From IMG/VR virus record IMGVR_UViG_3300023180_000017: a DNA stretch of 64,000 nucleotides. The stretch is one strand, 5' to 3'. The notes beneath the pieces are model-generated. The model was not told the origin of the DNA. It saw nothing but the letters and a program-made list of their open reading frames with translations, and searched no databases. Position numbers and translations under genes: made by a program. This document shows, piece after piece, positions 5,337-58,367 of the stretch (position 1 is its first letter; each line of letters opens with the position of its first letter). This DNA is from a virus.

Positions 5337-5894
5337 ATGGCAAACAACGTCTACAATGATATTTCGCTAGTCTCTAGCAACAAAAGTGCAAGGAAAAAAT
5401 TTATTGAAGCCTTTCAATCGGTAACGGATTTGAATGAGTGCGGATTAGAATTTTCTTCTATCCTTCCTGAATGGGATGGTGAATGGGCTTCGCGGGAATA
5501 CATGGAAGAGTACGTTGGTCCAAAGTGGGCAAACCTAGATGATTATCAAGGTGATGACTATGCTTATGTTGTTTCAGCATGGGGCCCGCCGGTAGCTTTC
5601 ATGAGACAATTAGCTAAAGAACTAAGCATGTTAGATGCAGACGTTAAACTTCGTATGAATTACACCGACGAGTTTTATAACTTTATAGGTACATGGGTAT
5701 TTGCTAACGGTGAAGAAGATTATGAAGAAGCCGATGGTGATTGGTTCTTTAGAAAAAGAGCAGAAGAAGTAGGCACCCCGCTAAAAGAATATGACTCTTT
5801 TGAAGATGATGGGTGGTATGATTTTATTGATGAAACAATCTTCAGCTGGGCAGATGAAATGTTGAGAGACAAAGATGAAATTAAATTACTCTGA
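5337..5894 (+). CDS. Acidic hypothetical protein (DUF1281/YubB ferredoxin-like)
   Basis: MANNVYN start, G.KW and SAWGPP motifs. Confidence 0.55.
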   Translation: MANNVYNDISLVSSNKSARKKFIEAFQSVTDLNECGLEFSSILPEWDGEWASREYMEEYVGPKWANLDDYQGDDYAYVVSAWGPPVAFMRQLAKELSMLDADVKLRMNYTDEFYNFIGTWVFANGEEDYEEADGDWFFRKRAEEVGTPLKEYDSFEDDGWYDFIDETIFSWADEMLRDKDEIKLL

Positions 5895-6312
5895 GGCTTT
5901 TAAAAAAAGCCAACGTATAGGGTTTACCTGTAGCACATTTGATTTGTTGCATGCAGGACACATCACAATGCTTGAAGAAGCTAAACGAAATTGTGATTAC
6001 TTGATTGTTGGACTACAAAACGATCCCACGTTAGATCGTCCAGAGAAAAATCGTCCAGTACAATCTATTGTAGAAAGGCAAATTCAATTGGCAGCTGTAA
6101 AATATATCGACGAAATTGTCATATATAATACAGAACGAGATTTAATTGATTTGCTTTTGACTTTACCTATTGATGTTAGAATTATAGGTGAGGAGTATAG
6201 AGACAAAGAGTTTACAGGAAAAGAACTTCCTATAGAAATGGTTTATAATTCTAGAAAGCATTCCTTTAGTAGCACAAGTTTAAGAAAGAGGGTAGCAGAT
6301 GAAGCAGTATAA
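5875..6312 (+). CDS. Cytidylyltransferase (TagD/RfaE-like)
   Basis: TFDLLHAGH (HxGH), ER..QL...KYIDE, and SSTSLR motifs. Confidence 0.85.
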   Translation: MKLNYSEAFKKSQRIGFTCSTFDLLHAGHITMLEEAKRNCDYLIVGLQNDPTLDRPEKNRPVQSIVERQIQLAAVKYIDEIVIYNTERDLIDLLLTLPIDVRIIGEEYRDKEFTGKELPIEMVYNSRKHSFSSTSLRKRVADEAV

Positions 6313-6795: not shown

Positions 6796-7117
6796 GTTAT
6801 GGAATAACATTGGCACGTCGGATATTCCGATGTGGCGTGTTGTTGGTGGTAACGAATATATTATTGCTAGGTTTGAAGAGGAGCCCACTTGGGCAGACGT
6901 GGGCGAGGCAGTAACTAAGTTCATGCACATCCTTGAAGGTAAGATTCAAATGGGGATTGTTGAAACCTATGTTGGATTTGATTTGTTTGACAATAACAAT
7001 CTAACACATGGCGAAAACTTTCAATTACAAAATGGCGGAACTATTGATTTCCCCACAGAGGACTTAACAAAGTTAGATGTTCGAGAAGACATGGCTGGAA
7101 TCTCAGGGGAAATTTGA
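6770..7117 (+). CDS. Hypothetical protein
   Basis: 115-aa ORF overlapping its neighbours. Confidence 0.65.
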   Translation: MLKLVACTKLWNNIGTSDIPMWRVVGGNEYIIARFEEEPTWADVGEAVTKFMHILEGKIQMGIVETYVGFDLFDNNNLTHGENFQLQNGGTIDFPTEDLTKLDVREDMAGISGEI

Positions 7118-7853
7118 GAACAAAGATAAGATGCCACCTAGGCTAACTATAGCCTATTCTTACTTTGAAGAACCTGAGTTACTAGAAAAACAAATAAGTC
7201 TCTGGGAGGATTATCCTCCTGGAGTAGAAATTTTTATTACAGATGATTATTCTGTAAAATATCCAGCACATGATATACTTAAAGATGTTTATTTTCCATA
7301 CGGTGTTGATATACAGCTTTGGAGAGTAACAAGAGATCTAGGATTTAATTCTCATGGTTGTAGAAATTTAGCAGCCAAGTACGCACCAACAGATGTTATT
7401 GCTTTTTTAGATATGGACATGACATTAAATCCAGGTGATGTTGGGCAGTTAAGAAGAATAACTTATTCTAAAGGCAGAGCATACTTCTTCAATATGTATA
7501 GTTATGCTAAGAAACAATTTTTTCAATTCCCAGGACATTTGAATACATTTATTGTACATCGAGATACCTATTGGGAAGCCGGTGGTTATGATGAGTCCTT
7601 TACGGGATATCATACAGGAGATAGAGAATTTCATCAACGTTTAGAACAGGTTTCTACAAGAAACAATGTTGGTATTACCTTAGGACTACACCGAGGTGGT
7701 AGAAAAGCTGTTGTTGATGTGGGTGTAGAGGGCATATTAGAGTATGATAACGAAAATATGCTAATTAAATACTCTAAACCTGTTCCAAATTTGGAACAGT
7801 TAAGGGGTACAGTTTCTAACAAAATAAACTTTCCTTTTGTTAGATTGTTATAA
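7077..7853 (+). CDS. GT-A glycosyltransferase (GT2/GT7-like)
   Basis: TDDYS, CRNLAA, FLDMD and GGYDESFTGY..GD motifs. Confidence 0.8.
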   Translation: MFEKTWLESQGKFENKDKMPPRLTIAYSYFEEPELLEKQISLWEDYPPGVEIFITDDYSVKYPAHDILKDVYFPYGVDIQLWRVTRDLGFNSHGCRNLAAKYAPTDVIAFLDMDMTLNPGDVGQLRRITYSKGRAYFFNMYSYAKKQFFQFPGHLNTFIVHRDTYWEAGGYDESFTGYHTGDREFHQRLEQVSTRNNVGITLGLHRGGRKAVVDVGVEGILEYDNENMLIKYSKPVPNLEQLRGTVSNKINFPFVRLL

Positions 7854-7856
7854 ATA
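7849..7856 (+). promoter_or_regulatory. T4-type late promoter
   Basis: TATAAATA upstream of the lipoprotein gene. Confidence 0.7.
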
Positions 7857-7906
7857 ATAAAGCACACATGTATAGTGTGCTTGATATATATATCAGGGAG
7901 AGACTT

Positions 7907-8872
7907 ATGAAAAAACTAGCTATTGCCTTAATGGCGACTGGCTTGTTAGGCATGGTGGGCTGTGCTTCCACGGGTACCGAGTATTACGAGGCTATCAGGA
8001 AAACAGCAGAAGCTAATGCTTTAGCAAGCGCCGCTAAATATGAGGCGTTATCAAAAATAGCAAGTAGTGGAGATCAAGGGGCAGCATCAGCCGCGGTTAT
8101 GGCTATTGCGCTTACTCAAGACAGGTCTGTAGTTCCCCAATATGTTGAGTCAGATGCCTTAAAGTGGGCCAGCGTCTTAGTACCTGGAGCCACTACATTA
8201 GGTAGCATCTGGTTGCAAACGGACTTAGCTAAAGCTCAATCTAATAATAGCAAGGAAATTCAAATGGCAAGTTTTGCTTCGAATCAAGCTATTCAATTGG
8301 GACAGCAGGACATGGTTGTTGGTCTAGGATCACAATGGTCTACTGCTTCTACAGCTAGTGCTGATCTTGCGATTGCAGGATTTACTGCTCTTAATACCGC
8401 AGGACAACAAACAGTTGACTTAGGTATTGCGGGACTTGGCACTGCTGATAGTATTGCAGGTGCTGGCTTTGACGCCACCACCAACGTTGCAGGCTTAGGT
8501 TTTGCCACTGTTGACAGTGTTGCAACAACCGGATTCCAAACTTCACAAAACATTTCAACTGCAGGTATGACTGGAATTGTAGATGTTAGTAAATGGGGTA
8601 TGGATGGAATGGAGGCACTTGGTACAGCCGGCATGACTGGCATGGTTGATATTTCAACAGGGTACAATACTTTGTTGGATAGCATTCAAACTACCAATGC
8701 TGCTACTCTAACTACCACGTTGGGTGACGCTAATGCAACTAACTTGTCGGGACAGTCTAACTACGCTACAATCATTGCCAGCTTACAGGCAACGATTAAT
8801 CAAATTAGCGCAGATCTAGCAACTCCAATTACTTGTCAGGATGATGGCACAGGCACTATTGTTTGTAACTAA
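7907..8872 (+). CDS. Late lipoprotein with Gly/Ala/Thr-rich repeats
   Basis: MKK, hydrophobic stretch and lipobox MVGC; roughly 11-aa periodic AG/TG/LG repeats; GGGAG SD. Confidence 0.75.
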   Translation: MKKLAIALMATGLLGMVGCASTGTEYYEAIRKTAEANALASAAKYEALSKIASSGDQGAASAAVMAIALTQDRSVVPQYVESDALKWASVLVPGATTLGSIWLQTDLAKAQSNNSKEIQMASFASNQAIQLGQQDMVVGLGSQWSTASTASADLAIAGFTALNTAGQQTVDLGIAGLGTADSIAGAGFDATTNVAGLGFATVDSVATTGFQTSQNISTAGMTGIVDVSKWGMDGMEALGTAGMTGMVDISTGYNTLLDSIQTTNAATLTTTLGDANATNLSGQSNYATIIASLQATINQISADLATPITCQDDGTGTIVCN

Positions 8873-8885
8873 TTCCTAACCAACT

Positions 8886-8913
8886 AGGGCTCGAAAGAGC
8901 CCTTATCTTTCTT
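8886..8913 (+). terminator. Intrinsic terminator
   Basis: AGGGCTC-GAAA-GAGCCCT hairpin followed by a T-rich tail. Confidence 0.8.
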
Positions 8914-8920
8914 TAGATCT

Positions 8921-8993
8921 TATAAATACTTGATTCCCATAGGGGAAATAAGTCAAAATAATGCTTGACAAAAGGCTCATTTTGTGCTATAAT
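8921..8993 (+). promoter_or_regulatory. Tandem late (TATAAATA 8921-8928) and early (TTGACA 8965 / TATAAT 8988) promoters
   Basis: Exact consensus matches. Confidence 0.85.
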
Positions 8994-9025
8994 AATGGTA
9001 TAAAATGAAGAAACGGACTAAAGAA

Positions 9026-10204
9026 ATGCTCTCATTCAAGAAACACATTACAGAACAGACAGAAGAAGACAAGCTCAAGCACTTGGAGCATGTAGAGGAT
9101 CACGTCATACACGGAGGCGAACAAGGGTTTGCCCACGCCTTCCACAATTTGAACGATGTACATAACAAGTTGCTAGGCGGACAAAATGACACCAAAATTA
9201 CTGTGAAGTATGATGGTAGTCCATCAGTCGTTTTTGGTAAGCATCCCGACACAGGTAAATTTTTTGTAGGATCTAAATCTGTGTTCAACAAGAAACCTAA
9301 AATTAATTATACACCTGAGGACATCGATAAGAACCACGGCCATTCCCCAGGGTTAACACAAAAATTAAAGGCTGCACTAGCACACTTACCTAAAGTTCAC
9401 TCAGGTGAGGGTGTTTATCAAGCAGACATTATGCACACAAAAGGTGATGTTCGACACGATGGCACTCGTGTACATTACACACCGAACACAATTACCTACC
9501 ACCACGATTCTAGCTCGGAACATGCACAAAAGGCTATGAACTCTCAAATAGGTATTGCAGTACATACAAAATACGAAGGCAAAAACTTTGCAGATATGAA
9601 AGCTGTTCATGGTGCAGACATTGAACTTAATGATCACCCTGATGTACACAATCTAAGTGTTCAACACGATTTAAGCAAAGTTGCTTATACACAGGAACAG
9701 CAGTCAGAGTACAAAAAACATATGGCAGCAGCCACAGAAGTGTTTAAGAAAACCAAAAAAGAAGCACACGCACACGTTGGCAAGCATGCAGAACACATTA
9801 AGACGTATATCAATCAAACTGTTCGCGATGGTAGTGAACCCAATCATGATGATTTCATAAAACATTATACAGCACATCATGATAAAAAGATAGCAGGAGT
9901 TAAATCGCCTGCTGCTAAGGCAAGACACACAGCAACCCGAGATAATGCCATTGCACATGCTAGTAAAAGCAAAGAACATATTACTAGCGTTCTACAAATG
10001 CACAAGCATTTACAAAATGCCAAAAACGTATTAACAAATGCCTTAGCATCCCATTCAGAGGTTGGACATGAAATTGGTGGGTTGCCCACAAAACCAGAAG
10101 GTTATGTTGTACACAGAAATGGACGCCCTTCTAAGTTTGTAGCACGACATGAGTTTAGTGCTGCCAACTTTGCTAGAGGAGACGAATTAAAAAAAGGTAA
10201 GTAA
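9026..10204 (+). CDS. DUF6267-like protein with ATP-dependent ligase / RNA-ligase-fold motifs
   Basis: HLEHVED; KYDGS (motif I), EGYVV (motif IV), SKFV (motif V); N-terminal MLSFKKHITE. Confidence 0.65.
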   Translation: MLSFKKHITEQTEEDKLKHLEHVEDHVIHGGEQGFAHAFHNLNDVHNKLLGGQNDTKITVKYDGSPSVVFGKHPDTGKFFVGSKSVFNKKPKINYTPEDIDKNHGHSPGLTQKLKAALAHLPKVHSGEGVYQADIMHTKGDVRHDGTRVHYTPNTITYHHDSSSEHAQKAMNSQIGIAVHTKYEGKNFADMKAVHGADIELNDHPDVHNLSVQHDLSKVAYTQEQQSEYKKHMAAATEVFKKTKKEAHAHVGKHAEHIKTYINQTVRDGSEPNHDDFIKHYTAHHDKKIAGVKSPAAKARHTATRDNAIAHASKSKEHITSVLQMHKHLQNAKNVLTNALASHSEVGHEIGGLPTKPEGYVVHRNGRPSKFVARHEFSAANFARGDELKKGK

Positions 10205-10453
10205 ATGACGAAGTTAAAGCACTGGTGGTTAAAATTAATTAAAGAAGAATGGGAGTTAACCATTTTTCATATAGGTGATACAAAAGTATTGCCTGATGGT
10301 AGTAGGTTAGAGACAAGTTCGCCAAAGACATATCGTGTCAAAAAGCTAACAAAAATTACCCCTACACATTTTAAGTTTACAGACACACAGGGACAAAAAC
10401 ATGAAATTAAAACAGTCGCTCCTGTGGGTTACAATTTAGTAAAGGTATTTTAG
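10205..10453 (+). CDS. Hypothetical protein
   Basis: 82-aa ORF abutting both neighbours. Confidence 0.65.
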   Translation: MTKLKHWWLKLIKEEWELTIFHIGDTKVLPDGSRLETSSPKTYRVKKLTKITPTHFKFTDTQGQKHEIKTVAPVGYNLVKVF

Positions 10454-11095
10454 ATGCAAAAAGATAAACATATTGTGTTCGCATTTGGTAGGTTAAATCC
10501 TCCTACTGCGGGGCACAGCAAACTAATTGATAAAGTACATCAGTTAGCAAAGCAACATGGCGCAGATCACAGAGTTATTGTTAGCCATTCTTTTGATAAA
10601 AATAAAAATCCTTTACAGGCACATCAAAAAATTAATTACTTAAAGCACATTCATACGGGTGTTAAGTTTGAGGCAAGTAGTAGAGAACATCCTCATTTCT
10701 TAGCACATCTTAAAAAAATGCATCAAGAAGGACATACGCATGTAACTATGGTAGCGGGTTCGGATAGAGTATCAGAGTTTCAAAGACTAGCTGATAAGTA
10801 CAACGGACCTAATGGTGAGTATCACTTCAAACATTTGAAAGTAGTATCTGCAGGACAGAGAGATCCAGATGCAGATGGAGTAGCAGGCATTAGTGGGACT
10901 AAAATGAGAACACATGCCGGAAATAATGATTATAAAAGTTTCAAGTCTGGGTTGCACCCCAGGGCATCTGATATGCACGCTAAAAAACTATTCCAAGCAA
11001 CAAGGCATGGAATGGGATTGCATGAAGATTCCGATTTAAAAATGTCCTTCAGTAAATTCTTAGTGGAGGAAAACAATGTGGTGGTTTCTAGTTAG
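10454..11095 (+). CDS. HxGH-superfamily nucleotidyltransferase ('cytidyltransferase' of T4-like phages)
   Basis: FGRLNPPTAGH, KNPL, VAGSDR and SAGQRDPDA...SGTKMR motifs. Confidence 0.8.
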   Translation: MQKDKHIVFAFGRLNPPTAGHSKLIDKVHQLAKQHGADHRVIVSHSFDKNKNPLQAHQKINYLKHIHTGVKFEASSREHPHFLAHLKKMHQEGHTHVTMVAGSDRVSEFQRLADKYNGPNGEYHFKHLKVVSAGQRDPDADGVAGISGTKMRTHAGNNDYKSFKSGLHPRASDMHAKKLFQATRHGMGLHEDSDLKMSFSKFLVEENNVVVSS

Positions 11096-11393
11096 AGCAG
11101 TCGTCTCTGGCATTATAAGTTCATCAGCAGGTCAATGGTTTTTGGGAACAAAAGTAGGTATTTGGTCCCAAGATAAAATCAACAAGTACCTAGACTATCT
11201 GTCTGAAAAATATGACTTAGCTATTCTCAAACAAGAAGAGAAATGGCGTCGTCAATATCCCCTATTAGCAAAACGTATAGATAAATTGGAAGAGTGGTCT
11301 CACCCACCTGTAGCTCCTGGCGGTGCTACAGAACTAAAAGATGAGATAGAAGAACTTAGAAATATTATAAATACAATGAAACAAGGGAAATAA
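11076..11393 (+). CDS. Hypothetical protein with N-terminal hydrophobic segment
   Basis: GGAGG SD; 105 aa. Confidence 0.65.
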   Translation: MWWFLVRAVVSGIISSSAGQWFLGTKVGIWSQDKINKYLDYLSEKYDLAILKQEEKWRRQYPLLAKRIDKLEEWSHPPVAPGGATELKDEIEELRNIINTMKQGK

Positions 11394-11396
11394 CCT

Positions 11397-11924
11397 ATGT
11401 TAAGTTTTATAGAGTTTTTTGAAGAAAAACAGAGACTTGATCCTAAGTGTTGGGACGGGTATAAGAAGAAGGGCACCAAGATGAAAGGCGGTGTTCGTGT
11501 AAATAATTGCGTCAAGGAAGAAGCCGGCAAGGACATGACGGTTAAACAGCTACAACAAAAATTTAAAGACGGGACGCATGAAGCATTAACAGATGTCAAA
11601 GTGGGTCGTCATGTTGAATTGCGCAATACAAAAACAGGCAAAACCTCTCACCATTACGTGAAAGAAGATAAGGGTATGGAAGGCATGACCCAAAAAGGCG
11701 GTCATAAACGTCCCACTGAAGATGGTGCCGGCCTGACACAAAAAGGCGTTGAAAAATATAGACGTCAAAATCCAGGAAGTAAACTACAAACTGCTGTTAC
11801 TACTCCTCCTAGCAAACTCAAACCTGGTAGCAAAGCGGCAAAAAGACGTAAATCTTTCTGTGCTAGATCACGTAGCTGGACAGGGGAAAGAGGTAAAGCA
11901 GCAAGAAGAAGATGGAATTGCTAA
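11397..11924 (+). CDS. Putative internal head protein (DUF6321-like C-terminus)
   Basis: MLSFIEFFEE N-terminus; CWDGY...NCVKE module; NPGSKL...RRKSFCAR...RRWNC. Confidence 0.6.
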   Translation: MLSFIEFFEEKQRLDPKCWDGYKKKGTKMKGGVRVNNCVKEEAGKDMTVKQLQQKFKDGTHEALTDVKVGRHVELRNTKTGKTSHHYVKEDKGMEGMTQKGGHKRPTEDGAGLTQKGVEKYRRQNPGSKLQTAVTTPPSKLKPGSKAAKRRKSFCARSRSWTGERGKAARRRWNC

Positions 11925-11925
11925 T

Positions 11926-12297
11926 ATGATATTTAGGTTATTACCATTATTAATGCTTGTTGGCTTCTTTGGTGCAGGTTATCTGTACTACAAAGACACC
12001 CAAGCAAGAATAGAACAATTAAGAGAAAATAATGCTAAACTTGAGGTAGCAGCAGAAGCAAACCGAGAAGCATTTGAAATCTTACAACAGGAAAACGCAG
12101 CCAATCAAGTAAAAATGGCAGAACTTCAATCTGAATTACAACAGGCAGAAGTGTACCAAGATGAGTTGATTGGTAAATTGAGACGTCATAACTTAACCGT
12201 ATTGACATTACAGAAACCAGGTTTAATTGAAAACAGAGTAAACAATGCAAGTGAAAAATTACGAGAAGAGCTACAAGGCATTACTTCTAATCCTTAG
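11926..12297 (+). CDS. Putative i-spanin (Rz-like)
   Basis: N-terminal TM helix and coiled coil; overlaps a downstream lipoprotein gene. Confidence 0.65.
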   Translation: MIFRLLPLLMLVGFFGAGYLYYKDTQARIEQLRENNAKLEVAAEANREAFEILQQENAANQVKMAELQSELQQAEVYQDELIGKLRRHNLTVLTLQKPGLIENRVNNASEKLREELQGITSNP

Positions 12298-12679
12298 TTT
12301 AGGATTGGTTTTACAGGGCTGTTCTACATTGCGCCCAGAGCCTAAAGTTATAACACAAATACAAACAGTAGAAAGGACAATACCTATACAGGCACGTCCA
12401 AAAGGTTTAAACTTAAACCAGTTGTACTTCTATGCTGTTACAGAAGAGAACTTTGAAGAGTTTAAAGAAAAATTTGTAAAGGATAACGGAGACTTTGTAT
12501 TCTTTGCTATAAGTGTTCCTGGGTATGAGAATTTATCTTTAAACATGGCAGAACTTAGACGTTTTATAGAACAACAGACAGCACTGATTGTTTACTATGA
12601 GAAGCAGGCTGTACCTGTAAGTGAACAATCTAGAACAGAGGAATTAAGAGAGAGACTCCAAGATGACGGATCTGACTGA
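12245..12679 (+). CDS. Putative o-spanin (Rz1-like lipoprotein)
   Basis: Signal peptide with lipobox LQGC; Pro-containing linker; overlaps the i-spanin 3' end. Confidence 0.65.
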   Translation: MQVKNYEKSYKALLLILSLGLVLQGCSTLRPEPKVITQIQTVERTIPIQARPKGLNLNQLYFYAVTEENFEEFKEKFVKDNGDFVFFAISVPGYENLSLNMAELRRFIEQQTALIVYYEKQAVPVSEQSRTEELRERLQDDGSD

Positions 12680-13856
12680 GAAATTAAATGCTGATAAAAA
12701 CAGCATAGGCGACTACATCGACGATTTTAAAAAGTCTGACGCCCCTCAATTTAAAGGCAAAGGCAAGTCTAAACGTAGAAGTATGGCAGTTGCTGCTTAT
12801 CTTGCATCTAAAAGAAAGAAAGAGTCGCATAACGAAGGCAAAGAGCATTCTTGGAAAACAGACGGACACTATACACAAGACGGTAAAGAGTGGAAAGGTC
12901 CACAACACGCACACGACGGTCAAGTAATGACAGGTGAGAAGCACACTGAGAAAAGCGTAAACTTATTTCATTTTAAAGACTTAAAGCCTAATATTAGACA
13001 AAAGATTTTAGACAAACTTAAAGAAGACGCCGAGTACGATCCTACACCAGGAGGCATGGAGTGGGGTACAGATAAGGGTACAGAGTATTTTAAAAAGCTC
13101 ACACCTGGAGAGGAAAAGGCTAAAAAGACAGAACTAATTAAGCCAATTAATACTCCTATTCAAGTTAAAGAAAATTGTGGTTGTGAGGATATAGAAGTTG
13201 AAACTGAAAAGGATAACTCTAAACACGAGTACAGAAAACAAAACGAGGCAGAAGCAGACACTTTAACTGACGAAGATATTAAGTCATTAGAAGCAGAAGC
13301 AGAAAATTTTACATGGGAAGATGCCTTATCATTACATCTATATGATGACGATGAGCTTGAGGATATAACAGATTATCATAGCGATATTAATATAACAGAA
13401 GTTTTATCGGTACAAGGAAGATTAAAAAGACGTTTCTCTGCTAGACGTAACAGACAAAAATTAAAAGTAGCAAGACAAATTGCCCTACGTAGAGGTTCTT
13501 CACCCGAAAGATTAAAGAAAAGAGCTGTTCGTGGAGCTCGTGGTATGGTCTACAAAAGACTATTACGAGGTAGAAACAGAGCCAACTTACCACCTGCAGA
13601 AAGATCAAGACTTGAAACAATGGTAAAAAGATTTGCACCTCTTGTTTCAAGATTAGCTGTTAAAATGTTACCCAACATGCGTAAAATGGAAATAGCTAGA
13701 ATGAAGAGCAGGGGATCTAAAAAGGCACAAGTGTCTAAGAAATATAAACCTGCAAAACCTATAAAGAGCAGTTCACAAAAATCTAAAAAGGCAAAAATAC
13801 CTAAGCCAAAGAAACCTAAAAAGGTTAAGAGCTACGGTAAAGTCGGCATCGGCTAA
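12663..13856 (+). CDS. Putative internal head / core protein with acidic then very basic domains
   Basis: YIDDFKKSDAPQFKGK and EWGTD...TPGE modules; (I/L/V)xE sites; Arg/Lys-rich C-terminus. Confidence 0.6.
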   Translation: MTDLTEKLNADKNSIGDYIDDFKKSDAPQFKGKGKSKRRSMAVAAYLASKRKKESHNEGKEHSWKTDGHYTQDGKEWKGPQHAHDGQVMTGEKHTEKSVNLFHFKDLKPNIRQKILDKLKEDAEYDPTPGGMEWGTDKGTEYFKKLTPGEEKAKKTELIKPINTPIQVKENCGCEDIEVETEKDNSKHEYRKQNEAEADTLTDEDIKSLEAEAENFTWEDALSLHLYDDDELEDITDYHSDINITEVLSVQGRLKRRFSARRNRQKLKVARQIALRRGSSPERLKKRAVRGARGMVYKRLLRGRNRANLPPAERSRLETMVKRFAPLVSRLAVKMLPNMRKMEIARMKSRGSKKAQVSKKYKPAKPIKSSSQKSKKAKIPKPKKPKKVKSYGKVGIG

Positions 13857-13894
13857 AAAAGATTTAATCTTTTTTTAATTCAATGTTCATTTCT

Positions 13895-13902
13895 TATAAA
13901 TA
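13895..13902 (+). promoter_or_regulatory. T4-type late promoter
   Basis: TATAAATA ending 26 nt before the ATG. Confidence 0.75.
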
Positions 13903-13928
13903 CCATTGTAATTCAAAGGTAATTAACA

Positions 13929-15440
13929 ATGGCAGATCAGAGTAAAAGAATGGAAATGTTAGTGAGGCAGGGTTTAATGCCCGCTCAGAAACTTCCTATT
14001 CTTAAAAAAGCAATTGCTAGAGTAAAGATGGGTGGTGCATTACTACCCAACGAAAGAGAAGTTATCAAAGATTATATGGACAAATTAATGTTCATAGTCT
14101 TTGGTGACGATACTGTTTTTAATAGAGCAAAGCAACATACTCAGAGAGCTAGATATCAAACAGAGGAGCAAATCGTGAATCAACTAGATGAGAGGGTGGT
14201 TGACGGTGTAGAAATCGTTGACGGTGAAGAGCAGAGAATTAAAGACGAAAAGAGAGCCCAAAAATTGGGAAGGAAAAGTAAGTCTGAGAAAATGAAAAGC
14301 TTTGCCAAGTCCCTCAGAAAAGAAAAAGAAAAACAGGAAGTAGATGAAAGCATCATTAAGATGAATGAAGACTACAAAGAAAAATTTAACGCAGCACTTA
14401 AGAAGTTTGGAGTGTCTAGTATTAGAGACTTGCCTGCAGATAAGAAAAAGAAATTTTTTAATACTGTAGACAATATGCACGTTTCTGATGATGAGAAAAA
14501 GGGCGTTGATGAGTCTACAGGTGGCGCTATGTCTAAAGACAAAGAGTCTCATGATACAGGCGGTTTTAGAATTCCTAACAAAGATGCAAATGCAGCTAGA
14601 GATAGATTAAAAAATAAGAACAAAGAAAAGTTTCCTGGTGTACAGGGAGAAAGTGTAGAAGAAGCTAAAATGATTCCTGGCTTCATGGGAGCAGATGGTA
14701 AGCCTACTTCTAAGCCTACAGCAAAAGACTTTGCAGCTAATAAAGAATATCAACATATGAAAAAGAAACTAGGAGATAGAATTCCTGGTCCTAAACCTAC
14801 TAAAGAAGAAGTAGAAGAAAATCAGTTAGATGAATATATTACAGCCAAGCAAATTAGAATGGCTAAAGGCATTGCTAACGATCCTAGACATAAAGGTGGA
14901 GACTACACCGGTGCCGCTAAGAAAATGGAAAAGATCAAGAAAGGACTTTCCAATCATCCAGCTGCCAAGAAGGCTTTAAGACAAGCAAATGAGTCTATGA
15001 CACCTAACAGTCATGGTTGGAATATCCAACAGCATGCAGGTGAGCTTGCTAAAAAGGATGGTCATGACATTAAAAAATTACCATATGGTCATGCTCAAGG
15101 ATACAGAGATAAAGCTAAGAAGGCTTTAGAGAGGAATGAAGAAATGACACCTGAGCAAAAAGCTAAGCGTTTAGAACTTATTAGATTAGCTGCACAGAAA
15201 TTAAAAGCTAAAGATGCAGATGCGGAGAAAAGAGCAGCTGCGGCAGCTAAAAGAGACATGAGCAGGCCAGGCGCACAAAAAGGTATGGCACCTGTTAAAA
15301 AAGAAGAAACATATTTGGATATTAATACGCTAAGAGAGTATATTAAACACTCTGATTTATCAAAAGAGAAAATCCAAAATATGACTCGCTCAGAAGCATA
15401 CAAATTACTCAATCAAATTATTAAAAGCAAAGGAGAATAA
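13929..15440 (+). CDS. Modular internal head protein / polyprotein-like
   Basis: Short basic modules separated by VDE/LDE/VEE/ANE sites; late promoter. Confidence 0.6.
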   Translation: MADQSKRMEMLVRQGLMPAQKLPILKKAIARVKMGGALLPNEREVIKDYMDKLMFIVFGDDTVFNRAKQHTQRARYQTEEQIVNQLDERVVDGVEIVDGEEQRIKDEKRAQKLGRKSKSEKMKSFAKSLRKEKEKQEVDESIIKMNEDYKEKFNAALKKFGVSSIRDLPADKKKKFFNTVDNMHVSDDEKKGVDESTGGAMSKDKESHDTGGFRIPNKDANAARDRLKNKNKEKFPGVQGESVEEAKMIPGFMGADGKPTSKPTAKDFAANKEYQHMKKKLGDRIPGPKPTKEEVEENQLDEYITAKQIRMAKGIANDPRHKGGDYTGAAKKMEKIKKGLSNHPAAKKALRQANESMTPNSHGWNIQQHAGELAKKDGHDIKKLPYGHAQGYRDKAKKALERNEEMTPEQKAKRLELIRLAAQKLKAKDADAEKRAAAAAKRDMSRPGAQKGMAPVKKEETYLDINTLREYIKHSDLSKEKIQNMTRSEAYKLLNQIIKSKGE

Positions 15441-15442
15441 AA

Positions 15443-15691
15443 ATGTCCGCATGGAGTAAAACCGTAAAACCTGTTATTACAGGTATTGATGCCGCCGATA
15501 TCTTTATGGTAGACGAAGCAGAAGTTGCAGCCACACCTGGTATTGCACAGCCTGGTTGGGTCTACAAAAAAGACTTAGGCAATGGTAGATTCATTTATGA
15601 GACGTTAGTGGCTATGGCTGATCCTTTCACCGATACCGAATATGAAGCGGCCGGTGGAGCAGACGACGACGCTGACTTCCCAGACGCCTAA
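15443..15691 (+). CDS. Small virion-associated hypothetical protein
   Basis: MSAWS...PGWV...ETLVAM...DDADFPD; AGGAG SD. Confidence 0.65.
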   Translation: MSAWSKTVKPVITGIDAADIFMVDEAEVAATPGIAQPGWVYKKDLGNGRFIYETLVAMADPFTDTEYEAAGGADDDADFPDA

Positions 15692-18611: not shown

Positions 18612-19303
18612 TGAATGTGAATTTAGTAGGGATCACACAACCTTCAGCGGCAACGGGTTGTCATAGTGCTAATGAACTTATTTCTTACGCCGCCCGTGTA
18701 AGTAACCCTGGCAATCAAAACAATGCTGAAACGTCACCTAAATTGCTAAAATACCTAATCAAAAATGCTCATTGGAGCCCTTTTGAGATGGTTTCTGTCA
18801 CCATGGAGATTAAGACTACCCGAGACATTAGTAGACAGATTATTAGGCACCGTAGCTTTAGTTTTCAGGAGTTTAGTCAAAGATATGCTGAATCAACTAA
18901 TTTTATAAATCGCGAAGCTAGACTACAAGATAAAAAGAATAGGCAAAACAGTATTGATTTAGACTTGCCTGAGGACTTTGGAAAAGGTGGTAATAAAACT
19001 CAACATGAGCGTCTTTACGAAGAATGGAATATGAGGCAAAGGGAAGTTATTAATAAATCACAGGAAGTTTATAAGTGGGCATTGGATAACGGCATTGCTA
19101 AAGAACAGGCTCGTGCAGTATTGCCTGAAGGTAATACGGAAACCACATTATATATGGCAGGAAATTTGCGTTCCTGGATTCATTATTGTATGTTAAGAAC
19201 AGAACAAGGAACACAAAAGGAGCATCGTCTGGTAGCTCAAAAATGCTGGGACATTTTATCTCAACACTTTCCAGATGTAGCAAAGGCAGTTAATGAACTC
19301 TAA
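18605..19303 (+). CDS. thyX: FAD-dependent thymidylate synthase
   Basis: HWSPFE, RHRSFSFQEFSQRY ThyX motif, EQARAVLP, QKEHR. Confidence 0.95.
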   Translation: MLMNVNLVGITQPSAATGCHSANELISYAARVSNPGNQNNAETSPKLLKYLIKNAHWSPFEMVSVTMEIKTTRDISRQIIRHRSFSFQEFSQRYAESTNFINREARLQDKKNRQNSIDLDLPEDFGKGGNKTQHERLYEEWNMRQREVINKSQEVYKWALDNGIAKEQARAVLPEGNTETTLYMAGNLRSWIHYCMLRTEQGTQKEHRLVAQKCWDILSQHFPDVAKAVNEL

Positions 19304-20369
19304 AATTTTTGTTGCCCTAGCTAGTTATAGGGATCCTCTTCTAACGTTTACAATTAAAACGGCATACGCTAATGCTGCTGAGCCAGATAATCTTGTCTTT
19401 GGTGTGGTTGAACAAGCCATGCCAGGAGAAGCCTTAGACTTAAAGCATCCGTTTTTTAAAAAATTATTAGACAACAATCAATTAAAATATGAATTGATAT
19501 CACCCTTTGAAACACAGGGTTGTTGTTGGGCTAGAGCAAAAACACAGGAAATGTATAATGGCGAAGAGTTTTATTCTCAGTTTGATTCTCATACAGGGTT
19601 TGAAGATAACTGGGATTTAATATATATTAATAACCTTCGTCATTTATTATTATTTCACGAAAGGCCTTTGATAACTTGCTATCCTCCTGGTATGGTAGCA
19701 GAGGACCATGATATATGGAACAATCCTATTAAATACGAATCATCTAAACCTAGAAATTTAAGAACAGGTATGTATTCAATGAATGCACTTACAGTAGGTG
19801 GAGAGAGCGATATTTGGGACGGTGGAAGTAACATAGGTAAACCTCAGATAGAGTTTGAAGAAAAACCAGACCATTATAAATTTTCAACACAGGGAAGATG
19901 GTACGAAAGTAAATTTCCATTTATCAAAGGATTTTTGTTTAGTGCAAATACAGTTTTTACTATAGGTAAATGGTGTAAGGAAGTTCCTTATGATGGGAAG
20001 TTATTGTTTATAGGTGAGGAACCAAGTTTAGCATTGAGGTCCTGGACCAATGGTTACGACATATTTCACATGTCAGGAAATCCCTCAAGGCATTATTATC
20101 CAAGGGATTACAGATTTTGTTATTGGGACAGTGATGTTGACTCGCAACGAGAGCCTGAAATAGATAGAGAAACAATGGACAAACAGTCTAATGAAAGACA
20201 AAAAGAATTATATACTGGCAAGTTAAAGGGAATCTATGGTGTGGGAAAAGTTAGATCTATAGAAGATTATAAAGACTTTTGTGGCATAGATTATAAGAAC
20301 AAGCATTTTGAGATACGTTCCTATACAGGTGAGGGCGTTCTTGATCAAGACTACAGAGAGAAAACATAA
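19293..20369 (+). CDS. GlcNAc-transferase-like glycosyltransferase (GT60-like)
   Basis: IFVALASYRDP, GCCWAR, QFDSH and FIGEE...RSWTNGYDIF motifs. Confidence 0.8.
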   Translation: MNSKIFVALASYRDPLLTFTIKTAYANAAEPDNLVFGVVEQAMPGEALDLKHPFFKKLLDNNQLKYELISPFETQGCCWARAKTQEMYNGEEFYSQFDSHTGFEDNWDLIYINNLRHLLLFHERPLITCYPPGMVAEDHDIWNNPIKYESSKPRNLRTGMYSMNALTVGGESDIWDGGSNIGKPQIEFEEKPDHYKFSTQGRWYESKFPFIKGFLFSANTVFTIGKWCKEVPYDGKLLFIGEEPSLALRSWTNGYDIFHMSGNPSRHYYPRDYRFCYWDSDVDSQREPEIDRETMDKQSNERQKELYTGKLKGIYGVGKVRSIEDYKDFCGIDYKNKHFEIRSYTGEGVLDQDYREKT

Positions 20370-50446: not shown

Positions 50447-51063
50447 AGATAACAAAAGAGAGACTGTCCTTGTATATGGACTATGTAAGATATCAAAATC
50501 ATCTAAGCCAAAGATTTTCAGATTGTTTTTATTCTAGTCAACTAGATAGTAAAAGTTGGTTAATTGAAAAACTAAGACTGTATTCCGACTGCAGAAAATT
50601 CAACAACGTTCATATATTCGGAGGATGGTACGGCGTTCTAGCTACTCTCCTAAAAGATAACTTTCAAATTCTGGGCGATATTACAACTGTAGACATTGAT
50701 CCAGATTGCGAAGAGGTTGTAAGGCGAATAACAACCAAAGAAGATAAAATTAATGCTGTTACATGTGATATGATGAAGTATGTTTATAATGACACTCCTG
50801 AGCTAGTAATAAATACTTCTTGTGAACACATTAACCAAATGTCGTATTACAGATGGTGGGATAATGTTCCTATGGGTACATGGTTTGTCGTACAAAGCAA
50901 CAATTTGGAAATAGGTGAACACATCAGAACAGCATCGTCTTTACAAGAGTTTGAAGGACAATGCGGGCATGAAAACATATTGTATTCTGGTGAATTGGAT
51001 TGTGGAAACTTCTCTAGATACATGATTATAGGCATTAAAGATGGGTACGAAATACGAGTCTGA
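50443..51063 (+). CDS. Class I SAM-dependent methyltransferase-like protein
   Basis: SKSWL, IFGGWYG, VDIDP and VINTSCEH motifs. Confidence 0.65.
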   Translation: MKITKERLSLYMDYVRYQNHLSQRFSDCFYSSQLDSKSWLIEKLRLYSDCRKFNNVHIFGGWYGVLATLLKDNFQILGDITTVDIDPDCEEVVRRITTKEDKINAVTCDMMKYVYNDTPELVINTSCEHINQMSYYRWWDNVPMGTWFVVQSNNLEIGEHIRTASSLQEFEGQCGHENILYSGELDCGNFSRYMIIGIKDGYEIRV

Positions 51064-52531
51064 TGTAGAACAAATTCGTCAGACTACAAAACAACTAGAA
51101 GAACAAATTAGTCCAACCTTCTGTTTGGCTAAATGGCATCACACCTCAATATACATGTACTCTGGGCAAACGCATAGCTGTTATCACCCACGACCCCATG
51201 ATATTTCTGTAGAAGAAATCAAAGTAAACCCAGCAGCTCTGCATAATACAAGCACAAAGAAAAAAGAAAGAGCAGAGATGCTTGTTGGTGAAAAACCAGA
51301 TGGGTGTAAGTATTGTTGGAACGTTGAAAGTTTAGATACTGATGAAACACCTTGGGAACAGCAACACATTAGCGATAGAAAAATTCGTAATGCTAGTATC
51401 TTTACACCTGAGCGTATAGAAGAAATTAAAAGCATGCCGTGGGATTACAATGTTAATCCAGAATATATAGAAGTTGCATTTCACAATGAATGTAACTTTA
51501 AATGTGGTTACTGCCATCCTGCTGTAAGCACAAGCTTCTATAATGAAATTAAAAAGTTTGGTCCATACAACATGGTTAAAAACCATGCCTTAGATATAGA
51601 CTACATTGAACAGAGCTCTTTGTTATCATCATTGAAAGATGAAGACAATAATCCCTTTATTAAGGCTTGGTGGGAATGGTGGCCCGAGATGTCCAAGACA
51701 TTAAACATCTTGCGTATTACTGGCGGAGAGCCACTGTTACACAAATCCACGTGGCGGTTATTTAATGATCTAAAAGAAAATCCTAAGCCTGATTTAGAAA
51801 TTAATGTTAATAGCAATCTCGGTATGACACATAGGCACGTGGAAAAACTAGTGCCTATTATAAATGATCTTTTAGACAGTAAAAAAATTAGAAAGTTTAA
51901 GATGTTTACAAGCATGGATACTTGGGGTAAACGTGCTGAGTATTTGCGAACAGGATTAGATGTAAATAAGTGGGAAAAGAATCAGGACATTTATGTTAGA
52001 GGAGTTAAGTCCCATATTACGCACATGTGTACATTCAATATCTTGTCAGTAACTTCTTTTACAGAGTATTTACAAAAGATTTTAGATTGGCGTGAACTTT
52101 ATGATGATGTAATTCCTGTATTGGATCCTAGAAATCCACAAGATCGAAAAATAAGGTTTGATACTCCTTATTTAAAAGAGCCTTTACAATATGATATGCA
52201 CATTCTTCCTAAAGAAGAATATTTGCCTCACTTTGACAACATCTTAAAGTTTATTGATGATAATAGAGACGACTCGGACACTAAAAAATTTAGTGATATA
52301 GAATATGAAAGATTTAGACGTGTTAGAGATTATTTTGCCGAAGTTCAGTATGATGATGAAAAAGTAAAACAAGGAAGAATAGATTTTTATAAATGGTTTA
52401 CAGAAATAGATAGAAGAAGGGATACAAACTTTTTAGAAACATTTCCAGATATGGAATCATTTTGGAATCTATGTAAACACTTAGCGGAAGAAGAAAACAA
52501 TACTAGAATAGAGGTAGTCAATGTCGGATAG
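51041..52531 (+). CDS. Radical SAM protein with N-terminal Twitch-like domain
   Basis: CLAKW...HSC...GCKYCW; CNFKCGYC; TGGEP. Confidence 0.88.
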   Translation: MGTKYESDVEQIRQTTKQLEEQISPTFCLAKWHHTSIYMYSGQTHSCYHPRPHDISVEEIKVNPAALHNTSTKKKERAEMLVGEKPDGCKYCWNVESLDTDETPWEQQHISDRKIRNASIFTPERIEEIKSMPWDYNVNPEYIEVAFHNECNFKCGYCHPAVSTSFYNEIKKFGPYNMVKNHALDIDYIEQSSLLSSLKDEDNNPFIKAWWEWWPEMSKTLNILRITGGEPLLHKSTWRLFNDLKENPKPDLEINVNSNLGMTHRHVEKLVPIINDLLDSKKIRKFKMFTSMDTWGKRAEYLRTGLDVNKWEKNQDIYVRGVKSHITHMCTFNILSVTSFTEYLQKILDWRELYDDVIPVLDPRNPQDRKIRFDTPYLKEPLQYDMHILPKEEYLPHFDNILKFIDDNRDDSDTKKFSDIEYERFRRVRDYFAEVQYDDEKVKQGRIDFYKWFTEIDRRRDTNFLETFPDMESFWNLCKHLAEEENNTRIEVVNVG

Positions 52532-53279
52532 ACTTATTATAGGAATAGGTGATTCTTTTATACAGGGTGCAGAAGCCGGGGGTGAAGAAGCATCTTTTCT
52601 AGCTCAATATGCTAACATTTGTAATGCAGATTATATTAACCTAGGTACAGAGGGAGTTGGTAATCTTGGTTCTGTTTTGAATTTATTCATGTACGACTTA
52701 GGATTGAGTGATTATCAAGAAAAGTATTTAATTTGGATGCCAACAGCTTTATCCAGGGTAGACTATTTAAATCCTAAATGGGTTCCTAAACCGAAAAAAA
52801 CTTTTAATGAATTTTTAACCATTTTTCCTAATTCAGAACCCCCCAATGTTCACGGAGAAGAACATCAAGAACTATGTAAAATCTGGGCTAAGATAAGTTC
52901 TCAAAGATCTGAGAATACAAACTTTTTACTGTCTTATAAATTACTTAAACAATTTTGTCATGCGAACGGGATATTGAATTATAAGATTTTTCCCTCTTTT
53001 ACAAACGAGTATAAACAGGAAAAATTTCTTTATTTTGATAATCACCTATATACATCAATTCAATGGACAGATATAATTACTGTTGGTGGTCATTCTAATA
53101 TGTTTGACTGGTGTGTGAAAGAGCTTTTGTTACTTGAAGAGGAAATTACCACCTTTGATCTTATTAACAAAAAAGTTCAACATCAAAATTTAGAAAAATA
53201 TTTTCACGAAAGAGGTCATCCCACTCGTTTAGGACATACACTATTTGCAAGAGCTCTTGCTCAGGAACATCAATTATGA
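52521..53279 (+). CDS. SGNH/GDSL-like protein
   Basis: IGDSFIQG, NLG..G.GN and GHPT..GH motifs. Confidence 0.6.
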   Translation: MSDRLIIGIGDSFIQGAEAGGEEASFLAQYANICNADYINLGTEGVGNLGSVLNLFMYDLGLSDYQEKYLIWMPTALSRVDYLNPKWVPKPKKTFNEFLTIFPNSEPPNVHGEEHQELCKIWAKISSQRSENTNFLLSYKLLKQFCHANGILNYKIFPSFTNEYKQEKFLYFDNHLYTSIQWTDIITVGGHSNMFDWCVKELLLLEEEITTFDLINKKVQHQNLEKYFHERGHPTRLGHTLFARALAQEHQL

Positions 53280-54280
53280 AAATTTTAATTACAGGCATCG
53301 CGGGTTTTTTAGGAAGTCATTTAGGCGAAAGACTTGTAAAGAATACAAATCACACAATTATTGGAAACGATAACTTGTTAGGCGGGTATGTTGATAATAT
53401 ACCTGAAGGAGTAAGTCGTTATAAGGTTGATTGTTGTGATTATGAAGGAATGTATAGAATTCTTGAGGGAGTTGATGTTGTAATACATACAGCCGCCACT
53501 GCACACGAAGGACTGTCTGTTTTTTCACCTTCATTTATTACTAAAAACATTTATGATGCCAGTGTTACAACAATGAGTGCTGCCATAGCAAGGGGAGTTA
53601 AGAAATTTATTTTTTGTAGTTCAATGGCAAGATATGGCGATCAAGAAGCACCCTTTACAGAGGACATGACGCCTCAGCCTGTTGATCCTTATGCTATTGC
53701 TAAAGTAGCTGCCGAAGATACCCTAAGAATATTATCTAAAGTTCATGGAATGGATTATGTTATAGCTGTCCCGCATAATATTGTAGGACCCAGACAAAGA
53801 TATGACGATCCTTTTAGAAATGTTATGAGCATAATGATTAATAGAAACCTAATGGGCAAGCCTGCTATTATTTACGGAGACGGGGAACAAACAAGATGCT
53901 TTTCCTACGTAGATGATTGTGTTGACTGTTTAGAACAAATGATTTATAGAAAAGATATTAATGGTGAGGTAATTAATATTGGGCCTGACTCAGGCGAAGT
54001 AACAATTAATACATTAGCAGAAATGATTTCCTCAATTACTAGGTGTAATGAGGCTCCAATATATATGGAAGGCAGACCACAAGAAGTTAAACACGCAACT
54101 TGTTCTGCAGAAAAGGCAAAAAAACTTTTAAACTACACCCCCAATTCTGATTTACTTATGATGATTAAATCTACTGTAGAATATATAAAATTACGAGGAC
54201 CAAAACCCTTTAATTATAATTTGCCTGTAGAGATTATAAATGAAAAAACTCCCAAAACTTGGAAAGATGGATTAATGTAA
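53276..54280 (+). CDS. NAD-dependent nucleotide-sugar epimerase/dehydratase
   Basis: TGIAGFLG, SS...YG, YAIAK (YxxxK) and GDGEQTR motifs. Confidence 0.92.
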   Translation: MKILITGIAGFLGSHLGERLVKNTNHTIIGNDNLLGGYVDNIPEGVSRYKVDCCDYEGMYRILEGVDVVIHTAATAHEGLSVFSPSFITKNIYDASVTTMSAAIARGVKKFIFCSSMARYGDQEAPFTEDMTPQPVDPYAIAKVAAEDTLRILSKVHGMDYVIAVPHNIVGPRQRYDDPFRNVMSIMINRNLMGKPAIIYGDGEQTRCFSYVDDCVDCLEQMIYRKDINGEVINIGPDSGEVTINTLAEMISSITRCNEAPIYMEGRPQEVKHATCSAEKAKKLLNYTPNSDLLMMIKSTVEYIKLRGPKPFNYNLPVEIINEKTPKTWKDGLM

Positions 54281-57512: not shown

Positions 57513-58297
57513 TATTAGATGTACATCTAGGAAAAAATGCAGAGTACACATTATCTTATAATATGTTTGATAATCGTGTGGCAGAAAGAATATGGCAAAG
57601 ATTTAAGACATTTGATCAGGAGTTTGTAAGTAGAGAACAATTCCATAATTTAGGTGAAACAAAAGAACAAATAGAAAGTAATATGTATTCTTGTGTTGAT
57701 AAAATAAAAGAACTTTGTCCTGAGGTTTTTAAAGATGCAGATGATCTAAATACATTACATGTTAATTTTCCGGATATGATGAAAACAGCTCAAGGAGAAT
57801 TAAGGGAACAGTTAAGTTCTTTTAATTATTACTTACACCATTTAGAAGATTTTGAAAGAGGTAAGGTTAAAGATCCTTGGTTTTTGTTAGCTGCAAAAAA
57901 TGATGACGGCGAACCTTTACAAGATGAAGATTATAAAATGTTCAATCCAATATACATGAAAGATCATCTTTATATGAACTATCCTCATATAGGAAAACAT
58001 TTATTAGAAATATATTATGATCAAGATTTAGATGTGCCTAAGGAACATATCAAACCCACAAGTCTACTTAAGAACACATTGGTTTGTTGGTTGGGAAGAG
58101 ATGGAAAGCCTTGGAGAAGGGAGGCATTAACAAATAAAGTCAAAAATTATTGTAAGCAAATACAAGATAAATTGCCTTATGATATAGATGATAAACGTTT
58201 GGCTATAGGACACTTAGGATTGGGAAAACTAAATCACAAACCAGACTTATTGGCAGTATATAAATATCAGTATGTTCATAGCGTAACAGTACGCTAA
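57509..58297 (+). CDS. Hypothetical protein
   Basis: ATGA coupling; LN.LH..F and LYMNY..IGK motifs. Confidence 0.65.
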   Translation: MILDVHLGKNAEYTLSYNMFDNRVAERIWQRFKTFDQEFVSREQFHNLGETKEQIESNMYSCVDKIKELCPEVFKDADDLNTLHVNFPDMMKTAQGELREQLSSFNYYLHHLEDFERGKVKDPWFLLAAKNDDGEPLQDEDYKMFNPIYMKDHLYMNYPHIGKHLLEIYYDQDLDVPKEHIKPTSLLKNTLVCWLGRDGKPWRREALTNKVKNYCKQIQDKLPYDIDDKRLAIGHLGLGKLNHKPDLLAVYKYQYVHSVTVR

Positions 58298-58301
58298 TTT
58301 C

Positions 58302-58330: not shown

Positions 58331-58367
58331 GAATAAAGAAAACAACTATAAAGACAAACAAAAGGAT

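Follow-up and report, generated by a model that had tools for sequence, protein, structure and literature searches.

The stretch of DNA considered here (the window) comprises 64,000 nucleotides of the IMG/VR virus record IMGVR_UViG_3300023180_000017, and record matches identify it as a fragment of an uncultured marine T4-like myovirus whose nearest isolates are the Pelagibacter phage HTVC008M, the Methylophilales phage Melnitz and the cyanomyoviruses. Two genes between positions 9,026 and 11,095 are the subject of this analysis. One encodes a member of the DUF6267 family, the other an adenylyltransferase-like protein of the HxGH type (the 'transferase'). A sequence-only reading of this locus had proposed that both proteins are packaged in the virion by means of a peptide like the capsid-targeting sequence (CTS) of T4, and act as a pair of injected nucleotidyltransferases. 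The genes and their main motifs are as follows.

9026..10204, + strand: DUF6267 gene, encoding a candidate ligase-fold covalent nucleotidyltransferase of 392 amino acids; an alternative ATG lies upstream at 9005
9206..9220, + strand: motif I, KYDGS, with the candidate nucleotidyl-accepting lysine K61 (counted from 9026); K68, D70 and G71 (counted in the open reading frame (ORF) from 9005) are at least 90% conserved in 83 sequences
9260..9277, + strand: FFVGSK, at the position of motif Ia; the lysine of FFVxxK is the sole invariant column in 83 sequences
10097..10147, + strand: motifs IV and V, EGYVV ... SKFVAR; E365, G366, V368, K377 and R381 are at least 90% conserved in 83 sequences
10097..10111, + strand: EGYVV, motif IV
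10130..10147, + strand: SKFV(AR), motif V
10454..11095, + strand: HxGH (HIGH-type) adenylyltransferase-like gene, 213 amino acids, 'cytidyltransferase', of the cyanophage T4-GC190 family (PF01467, phrog_3041)
10484..10516, + strand: FGRLNPPTAGH, the (T/H)xGH nucleotide-binding motif; H21 is invariant and R13, N15, P16 and G20 are at least 90% conserved in 43 sequences
10889..10909, + strand: ISGTKMR, corresponding to ISxTxxR, the other signature of NMNAT/PPAT-type enzymes; R152 is invariant and S147 at least 90% conserved in 43 sequences

The product of the first gene matches Pfam DUF6267 (PF19782) with 333.8 bits against a cut-off of 27 (E 2e-99, residues 25-390 of 399). This is a very large viral family, with 3180 clusters at 90% identity among proteins of near length and 1999 representatives at 50% identity. 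The methionine at 9026 is the one conserved in the family (column M8, at least 90% conserved in an alignment of 83 diverse members), so the start is placed there, as had been proposed, and the ATG at 9005 is rejected. The four peptides singled out earlier as catalytic motifs, KYDGS, FFVGSK, EGYVV and SKFV, lie in canonical order at the coordinates given above and are conserved across the same 83 members. A QxD strand, a PN...Y strand and a K...R pair near the C-terminus also reach at least 90% conservation, and the family has a conserved N-terminal HLEHxED element.

An AlphaFold2 model of DUF6267, made from the family alignment, is confident (predicted local distance difference test (pLDDT) 94.2, predicted template modelling score 0.90), with only residues 1-19 of the ORF from 9005 disordered (pLDDT <50). 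A nucleotidyltransferase-domain fold is present in the model and its closest structures are RNA ligases, in agreement with the ligase fold for which the sequence-only reading had suggested a structure search. The leading structural matches, with their scores, are these.

5cot, Naegleria RNA ligase (Rnl5): 9.3, with 184 residues aligned
6n0t, fungal tRNA ligase Trl1: 8.2
1xdn, Trypanosoma REL1: 7.9
2hvq, T4 Rnl2: 7.5
9do4, T4 Rnl1: 7.2

The matches continue with archaeal RNA ligases and then more than 10 DNA ligases, and in a viral structure library every named match outside DUF6267's own members is an RNA ligase. A role as a capping enzyme is not favoured, since the top structural matches include none. 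A Foldseek search of the PDB with the DUF6267 model gave nothing at E <=0.001, the weak ligase rows lying amid carbonic anhydrase and CorA noise. Searches of PDB sequences with the single sequence and with the family profile returned no ligase and only spurious helical matches, and a protein atlas search returned only unnamed viral clusters. Pfam matches to Tma16 and PLDc_2 and weak NCBIfam matches scored below their cut-offs and were disregarded. Between candidate motifs IIIa and IV lies a basic helical insertion of about 115 residues (about 230-347), with an isoelectric point (pI) of 9.7. The model contains no OB domain, which is compatible with an RNA-ligase-type enzyme because RNA ligase families differ in their accessory domains. 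On its motifs and its model, DUF6267 is a predicted polynucleotide-ligase-like nucleotidyltransferase with intact catalytic motifs.

The transferase scores 23.5 bits against the Pfam CTP_transf_like family PF01467 (cut-off 21) and matches phrog_3041, the phage 'cytidyltransferase' family, with E 7e-63. Its AlphaFold2 model has a pLDDT of 91.4, with low confidence for the last 24 or so residues, and Foldseek places NadD, PPAT, NMNAT and FAD synthetase on top (E 2.5e-6 to 4e-4, probability 1.0), with 93 PDB chains of Rossmann-like fold at E <=0.001. The earlier call of an HxGH nucleotidyltransferase at 10454..11095 is thus upheld by the invariant histidine and arginine, by the Pfam match and by the fold, and the protein is best described, from motifs and model, as a predicted HxGH/ISxTxxR enzyme with a NadD/PPAT/NMNAT-type fold. 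Its acceptor is less narrowly defined, as the modelled fold does not separate nicotinamide mononucleotide (NMN) from phosphopantetheine or other phosphorylated acceptors. The protein fails the NadD equivalog model TIGR00482, with 17.6 bits against a cut-off of 112.45, and papers, among them PMC10665884, name the protein NMNAT by similarity only. Both enzymes are rich in histidine (10.7% for DUF6267 and 10.3% for the transferase) and basic (pI 9.2 and 9.7); neighbouring proteins contain 0-5% histidine.

The linkage of the two genes in relatives, a point that the sequence-only reading had left to a co-occurrence check, is very strong. DUF6267 lies directly upstream of the transferase in all 80 of the related IMG/VR loci with enough upstream flank, and in most of about 470 phage records no more than a few hundred bases separate the two matches. 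The genes also abut in most cyanomyoviruses. About 40 DUF6267-transferase fusions occur among the best 150 of the 50%-identity family representatives, and one protein has the reverse domain order. PHROG 455 covers both domains, and both enzymes are cyanophage core genes, DUF6267 being T4-GC71 and the transferase T4-GC190 (PMC3037559). Across marine T4-like phages the two genes are either neighbours or fused, and they are functionally coupled. The window has an additional gene in this position:

10205..10453, + strand: small ORF of 82 amino acids between the enzyme genes, tightly abutting both; no family assignment in Pfam and PHROG searches

Its start and stop codons are adjacent to the flanking enzyme genes. 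The insertion is confined to the window; in the 80 relatives the enzyme genes abut and a homologue of the small ORF lies about 4 kb downstream.

Two further observations concern the DUF6267 gene. There are two very divergent alleles, with about 28% versus 57-78% identity to the window's protein, beside near-identical transferases (65-83%), which suggests replacement of the ligase-like allele. The groups comprise loci L014-L024, L047-L049 and L055-L077 on one side and L008-L013 and L025-L046 on the other, and the N-terminal tag described below is kept in both. In the older S-PM2 record NC_006820 (4871-6650), DUF6267 is divided between p141 and the N-terminal portion of p142 ('cytidyltransferase'). 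A fused S-PM2 DUF6267-transferase protein of 591 amino acids is present in the viral structure library, so that the split looks like a frameshift in the older record.

The second property shared by the two enzymes is a short terminal peptide resembling the CTS of T4, MKTYQEFIAE (PMC8442874). It occurs three times at the locus.

9026..9055, + strand: N-terminal CTS-like tag MLSFKKHITE (F4, H7, I8, E10) on DUF6267; disordered in the model
11039..11068, + strand: C-terminal CTS-like tag KMSFSKFLVE (F4, F7, L8, E10) on the transferase, followed by 8 residues and the stop codon; a low-confidence flexible helix in the model
11397..11924, + strand: gene for a basic DUF6321 protein (pI 10.2; PF19846, E 2e-10), with the N-terminal tag MLSFIEFFEE (F4, F7, F8, E10)

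The sequence-only reading had noted two copies, MLSFKKHITE (9026-9055) and MSFSKFLVEE (11042-11071). Both peptides are present, but relatives show the better C-terminal register to begin one residue earlier, and the third copy, on a protein that looks like internal-protein-like cargo, had been missed. The tag is low-confidence or disordered in the models of both enzymes.

As a pattern the tag can be written M-x-x-[FYLIW]-x-x-[aromatic or large hydrophobic]-[LIVFM]-x-[ED]. It stands at residue 1 in 126 of the 167 DUF6267 members that have a leader of 12-30 amino acids, and some leaders, such as MKTFVEFITE and MKSYTEFVAE, are almost the T4 sequence. Other members, including those of cyanophages, have no leader, so the tag appears to be an add-on to the DUF6267 fold. 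Among 40 independent representatives its information content is highest at position 4 (F, 2.7 bits), followed by 7 (F/Y, 2.2), 10 (E, 1.9) and 8 (L/I, 1.3). According to a review of T4 CTS mutagenesis, residues 4 and 7 are the main determinants of targeting, and residues 8 and 10 those of processing (PMC9026906). The conserved positions are therefore the same four that were found to be functional in T4, and the likeness to the T4 peptide remarked on earlier proves to be a family-wide feature.

In the window's clade the transferase has no N-terminal leader but a conserved C-terminal peptide of the type R-L-S-F-G-A-F-L-N-E, followed by 0-10 residues; about 25 of the first 30 variants listed match the tag pattern. 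Within the clade F4 and L8 are invariant and F7 is at least 90% conserved, and the flanking positions vary. The idea that this C-terminal peptide is a dead remnant of a lost fusion is rejected, because the key positions are invariant while the flanks are variable. In many relatives the transferase and a basic DUF6321 domain form one fused protein with the tag peptide as the junction, and the window's DUF6321 protein is 74% identical to the C-terminal part of such fusions, starting exactly at the junction tag. DUF6321 relatives begin MKTFKEFLEE or MKSFKEFLEE, sharing their first seven residues with T4 IPI. In 36 fusion proteins the tag stands at residue 1 in 12, and almost none carry it at the junction or after the transferase domain. 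These counts, with one tag on each product of the split genes, fit one tag per polypeptide.

Besides these fusion counts, three further controls support a targeting signal. The tag is never present in five neighbouring gene families. Genome-wide tests on a complete 165.6-kb relative showed that, among long ORFs, the pattern at the first methionine marks only DUF6267 and the DUF6321 protein, plus one doubtful match. Over 135 kb of T4 the pattern recovers ipII, ipIII and the small gp61.1, plus two non-genic matches. T4 gp61.1 itself (a hypothetical protein of 54 amino acids; NC_000866 18966-19130, minus strand) begins MKTFKEFIKE, a CTS-like N-terminus close to those of IPI-III.

Published virion data come from cyanophages. 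Purified virions of S-SM1 contained the transferase T4-GC190 (PMC3037559), as did S-CREM2 virions, and its frequent detection in cyanophage virions has been noted (PMC10665884). The cyanophage tag is N-terminal: the S-SM1 transferase starts MKKFSAFLNE, and the neighbouring S-SM1 DUF6267 is untagged. In this pair, the single one checked, tag and detection in virions go together: the tagged transferase was detected, and DUF6267, which is untagged, is not among the flagged proteins. A gp21-type prohead protease (PF03420) is present in four complete relatives. Thus the packaging of both proteins that had been predicted is supported for the transferase, through its published cyanophage orthologue; for DUF6267 it is not, the untagged cyanophage orthologues being unflagged.

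Upstream of the enzyme pair, and again before the DUF6321 gene, lie the following signals.

8886..8903, + strand: terminator-like hairpin closing the upstream gene, with a 7-pair stem containing 5 G-C pairs, then a T-rich tail
8921..8928, + strand: T4-type late-promoter-like TATAAATA, an exact consensus match, intergenic
8965..8993, + strand: sigma-70 promoter-like TTGACA-17-TATAAT, TG-extended, with 12/12 consensus matches
11366..11373, + strand: late-promoter-like TATAAATA before the DUF6321 gene, an exact match 31 nucleotides before the ATG at 11397

The tandem late and early promoters that the sequence-only reading had placed before the pair are thus both found, as consensus matches. The late octamer also occurs 19-34 nucleotides upstream of ORFs 7868, 11397 and 13929, and the site at 8965-8993 is the sole perfect sigma-70 consensus within 7600-15600. 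These late- and sigma-70-type sites are promoter-like by consensus match.

Both proteins carry a T4-type head-loading peptide, and are therefore probably injected with the DNA. The explanation that we favour, and hold with about even confidence, is that the pair forms a head-loaded, injected two-enzyme module in which a ligase-like enzyme seals nucleic-acid ends and its partner makes or supplies the adenylyl donor. The tag would bind the scaffolding core, so that DUF6267, the transferase and the DUF6321 protein would be trapped in the prohead; a gp21-type protease would then cut after Glu10, and the mature enzymes would enter the host along with the DNA. In the host, the ligase-like enzyme would self-adenylylate on the motif I lysine and seal broken ends (nicked RNA or DNA, or cleaved tRNA), while the transferase would make an ADP-linked cofactor from ATP or otherwise supply an adenylyl donor.

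A bolder form of this proposal, which we consider unlikely, is a virion-injected sealing system that recharges itself. The HxGH enzyme would make an ADP-linked donor (NAD+ or a similar dinucleotide) from ATP and the ligase-like enzyme would consume it, so that phage or host nucleic acids could be repaired in the first minutes of infection even where cellular defences had cut RNA or drained NAD+. The tag would serve marine T4-like phages at large as a portable 'inject me' address, and the giant relatives described below would be polyproteins cut in the head.

Several points weigh against the injected module. Position 7 of the window's DUF6267 tag is histidine rather than phenylalanine or tyrosine. 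The transferase tag is C-terminal here and N-terminal in the T4 internal proteins, although the injected T4 enzyme Alt is reported to undergo processing at its C-terminus too (PMC9026906), and so a C-terminal tag has a precedent. The candidate motifs III and IIIa of DUF6267 (conserved Q139/D141 and Y165, on strands at the expected spacing) are assigned by position only. The window contains no head genes, so that the gp21-type protease is known from relatives only. On the virion side, the S-CREM2 authors warn that abundant proteins may co-purify with virions (PMC10665884), and T4-GC71 carries no structural flag in the supplementary table covering three virion proteomes (PMC3037559). Because cyanophage DUF6267 is both untagged and unflagged, joint packaging does not extend to all these phages, and the two enzymes may do most of their work in the cytoplasm. 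The sigma-70-like promoter points to additional early expression of the genes, for which there would be no need if their products acted only after injection. Of the interpretation first offered for this locus, then, the ligase fold, the HxGH enzyme, the linkage, the CTS likeness and the virion association of the transferase have held up, whereas the packaging of DUF6267 itself is not supported.

The pair could instead be a cytoplasmic replacement for the missing T4 ligase, with DUF6267 joining Okazaki fragments or repairing phage DNA or RNA during replication, the transferase keeping an adenylyl donor available (for example NAD+ from NMN and ATP), and the peptides not serving as packaging signals. 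Marine T4-like phages are usually described as being without a ligase. No PF01068, PF09414 or PF01653 ligase domain was found in HTVC008M, Melnitz, S-SM1, P-HM2 or the 165.6-kb IMG/VR genome, positive controls for all three families having matched, and DUF6267 is therefore the only ligase-superfamily candidate in these five complete relatives. A search for PF09511, the family of T4 Rnl1, also came back blank, but it ran with no positive control and is given no weight. The surroundings would suit such a role, for the pair lies among replication and nucleotide-metabolism genes both in cyanophages and in the window, where genes for primase, thymidylate synthase and ribonucleotide reductase lie downstream; the perfect early-type promoter-like site and the untagged, unflagged cyanophage DUF6267 point the same way. 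The DUF6267 fold, however, is nearer to RNA than to DNA ligases and has no OB domain, the tag is conserved exactly at the functional T4 positions with one per polypeptide, a transferase orthologue is found in virions and late-promoter-like sites are present. This alternative is in our view doubtful, though it has to be reckoned with.

Two other explanations keep part of the scheme. If the shared peptide were a docking helix, the enzymology would be that of the injected module, but the peptide would hold the three proteins together, or bring them to a shared partner, and would be neither a capsid-targeting nor a protease signal. Its near-identity to the T4 peptides, with relatives starting MKTFKEF like T4 IPI and gp61.1, makes this quite unlikely, as do the invariant glutamate at position 10, which is more readily explained by a protease site than by a docking surface, and the way in which tag presence tracks virion detection in S-SM1. 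It would nonetheless account for the short amphipathic helix shared by three products of a single cluster of genes, for a C-terminal occurrence unlike that of the T4 internal proteins and for the persistence of the peptide as an internal junction in transferase-DUF6321 fusions. Alternatively, the module may centre on a cofactor, the HxGH enzyme being a true NMN or nicotinic acid mononucleotide adenylyltransferase that rebuilds NAD+ where defences deplete it, and DUF6267 using the nucleotide or transferring it onto a protein or small molecule rather than nucleic acids. NadD and NMNAT are indeed top structural matches, databases and papers annotate the transferase family as NMNAT, and injection at the start of infection would suit counter-defence. 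Yet PPAT and FAD synthetase match about equally well, the TIGR00482 score is that of a protein outside the NadD model, and the TxGH form of the first motif is as in PPAT. No other NAD-salvage gene is seen in the window, and the obligatory ligase-fold partner and the frequent DUF6321 fusion would be left unexplained. We consider this cofactor-centred explanation improbable, the least likely of those weighed here.

Around the enzyme and DUF6321 genes lie others that do not carry the tag.

11076..11393, + strand: membrane-anchored ORF of 105 amino acids, untagged, with a hydrophobic N-terminus, overlapping the transferase stop codon; a homologue lies downstream of the transferase in many relatives
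12663..13856, + strand: basic protein of 397 amino acids, untagged here; a conserved downstream neighbour whose C-terminal region is fused to both enzymes in some relatives

The C-terminal region of the 397-amino-acid protein gives BLASTP matches to the fused relatives P0121 (residues 622-705) and P0124 (293-402). Other giant relatives (up to 1246 amino acids) add a Pol-beta-type nucleotidyltransferase or a LysM domain, and these giant multi-domain proteins may be polyproteins of head cargo. A spanin-like pair is found at about 11926-12679, a membrane-anchored coiled-coil protein being followed by a lipoprotein that matches the Rz-like spanin phrog_812. From the positions of this pair and of the membrane-anchored ORF, lysis genes seem to be mixed in among the genes for tagged cargo. 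On the other side, ORF 7868-8872 has TATAAATA 19 nucleotides upstream and encodes an acidic (pI 4.15), Ala/Gly/Thr-rich protein with a lipoprotein-type signal sequence; it is conserved as a neighbour at the loci with the divergent allele, and Pfam and PHROG searches found no family match for it. Elsewhere in the window there is a second, unrelated CTP_transf-like gene, for an HldE-type heptose-1-phosphate adenylyltransferase (phrog_7878). It is grouped with glycosyltransferases, a nucleotide-sugar epimerase, two radical-SAM-like proteins and a carbamoyltransferase (5875-6312, 7077-7853, 19293-20369, 51041-61438), and these regions resemble islands of auxiliary genes for sugars or glycans.

That the transferase is associated with virions, and that it is annotated as NMNAT-like, has been published before. 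A literature search found no paper on DUF6267, and the ligase-like nature of this family, the coupling of the genes and the logic of the tag were found in no paper. DUF6267 with its obligatory adenylyltransferase offers a testable candidate for the missing nucleic-acid sealing function in some of the ocean's most abundant viruses. The shared tag suggests that the T4 head-loading address is conserved far outside the coliphages, and it could be used to predict injected proteins from sequence; at this locus it predicts two enzymes and one basic protein as injected. If the injected module is correct, the pair would join Alt as phage enzymes delivered with the DNA.

Comparison with known systems shows which parts of the module are familiar. 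As in the ATP-dependent RNA ligases (NgrRnl/Rnl5 5cot, Trl1 6n0t, REL1 1xdn, T4 Rnl2 2hvq and T4 Rnl1 9do4), the KxDG of DUF6267 lies on a beta-hairpin, a basic residue some 23 positions further on is conserved, and EG and K motifs come near the C-terminus, all in the canonical order. Unlike them, DUF6267 has no sequence-level similarity by which Pfam or profile searches find a ligase, contains the basic helical insertion of about 115 residues and the HLEHxED element, has no OB or known accessory domain, and comes with an obligatory HxGH partner and often a capsid-targeting-like leader. The transferase shares with NadD/NMNAT and PPAT (CoaD) its Rossmann-like fold, the (T/H)xGH and ISxTxxR signatures and a CTP_transf_like match above the cut-off. 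It differs from them in having only 11-19% identity, in failing the NadD equivalog model, in its conserved flexible C-terminal tag, in its frequent fusion to a ligase-like or DUF6321 domain and in the presence of its orthologue in virions. Two phage enzymes, one of them from the ligase superfamily, that would act together on broken nucleic-acid ends recall the T4 tRNA-repair pair of Pnkp and Rnl1. Here, however, the partner is an HxGH nucleotidyltransferase rather than a kinase-phosphatase, and no end-healing domain was found; nor is the T4 pair known to be packaged. With respect to T4 IPI-III and Alt, the cargoes are different, an adenylyltransferase and a ligase-like enzyme; one of the tags is C-terminal, and packaging and cleavage in this phage are predictions. 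The likenesses lie in the 10-residue peptide with aromatic residues at positions 4 and 7, an aliphatic residue at 8 and glutamate at 10, in the basic nature of the cargoes, in the late-promoter-like sites upstream, in the gp21-type protease of relatives and, as with Alt, in a cargo that is itself an enzyme.

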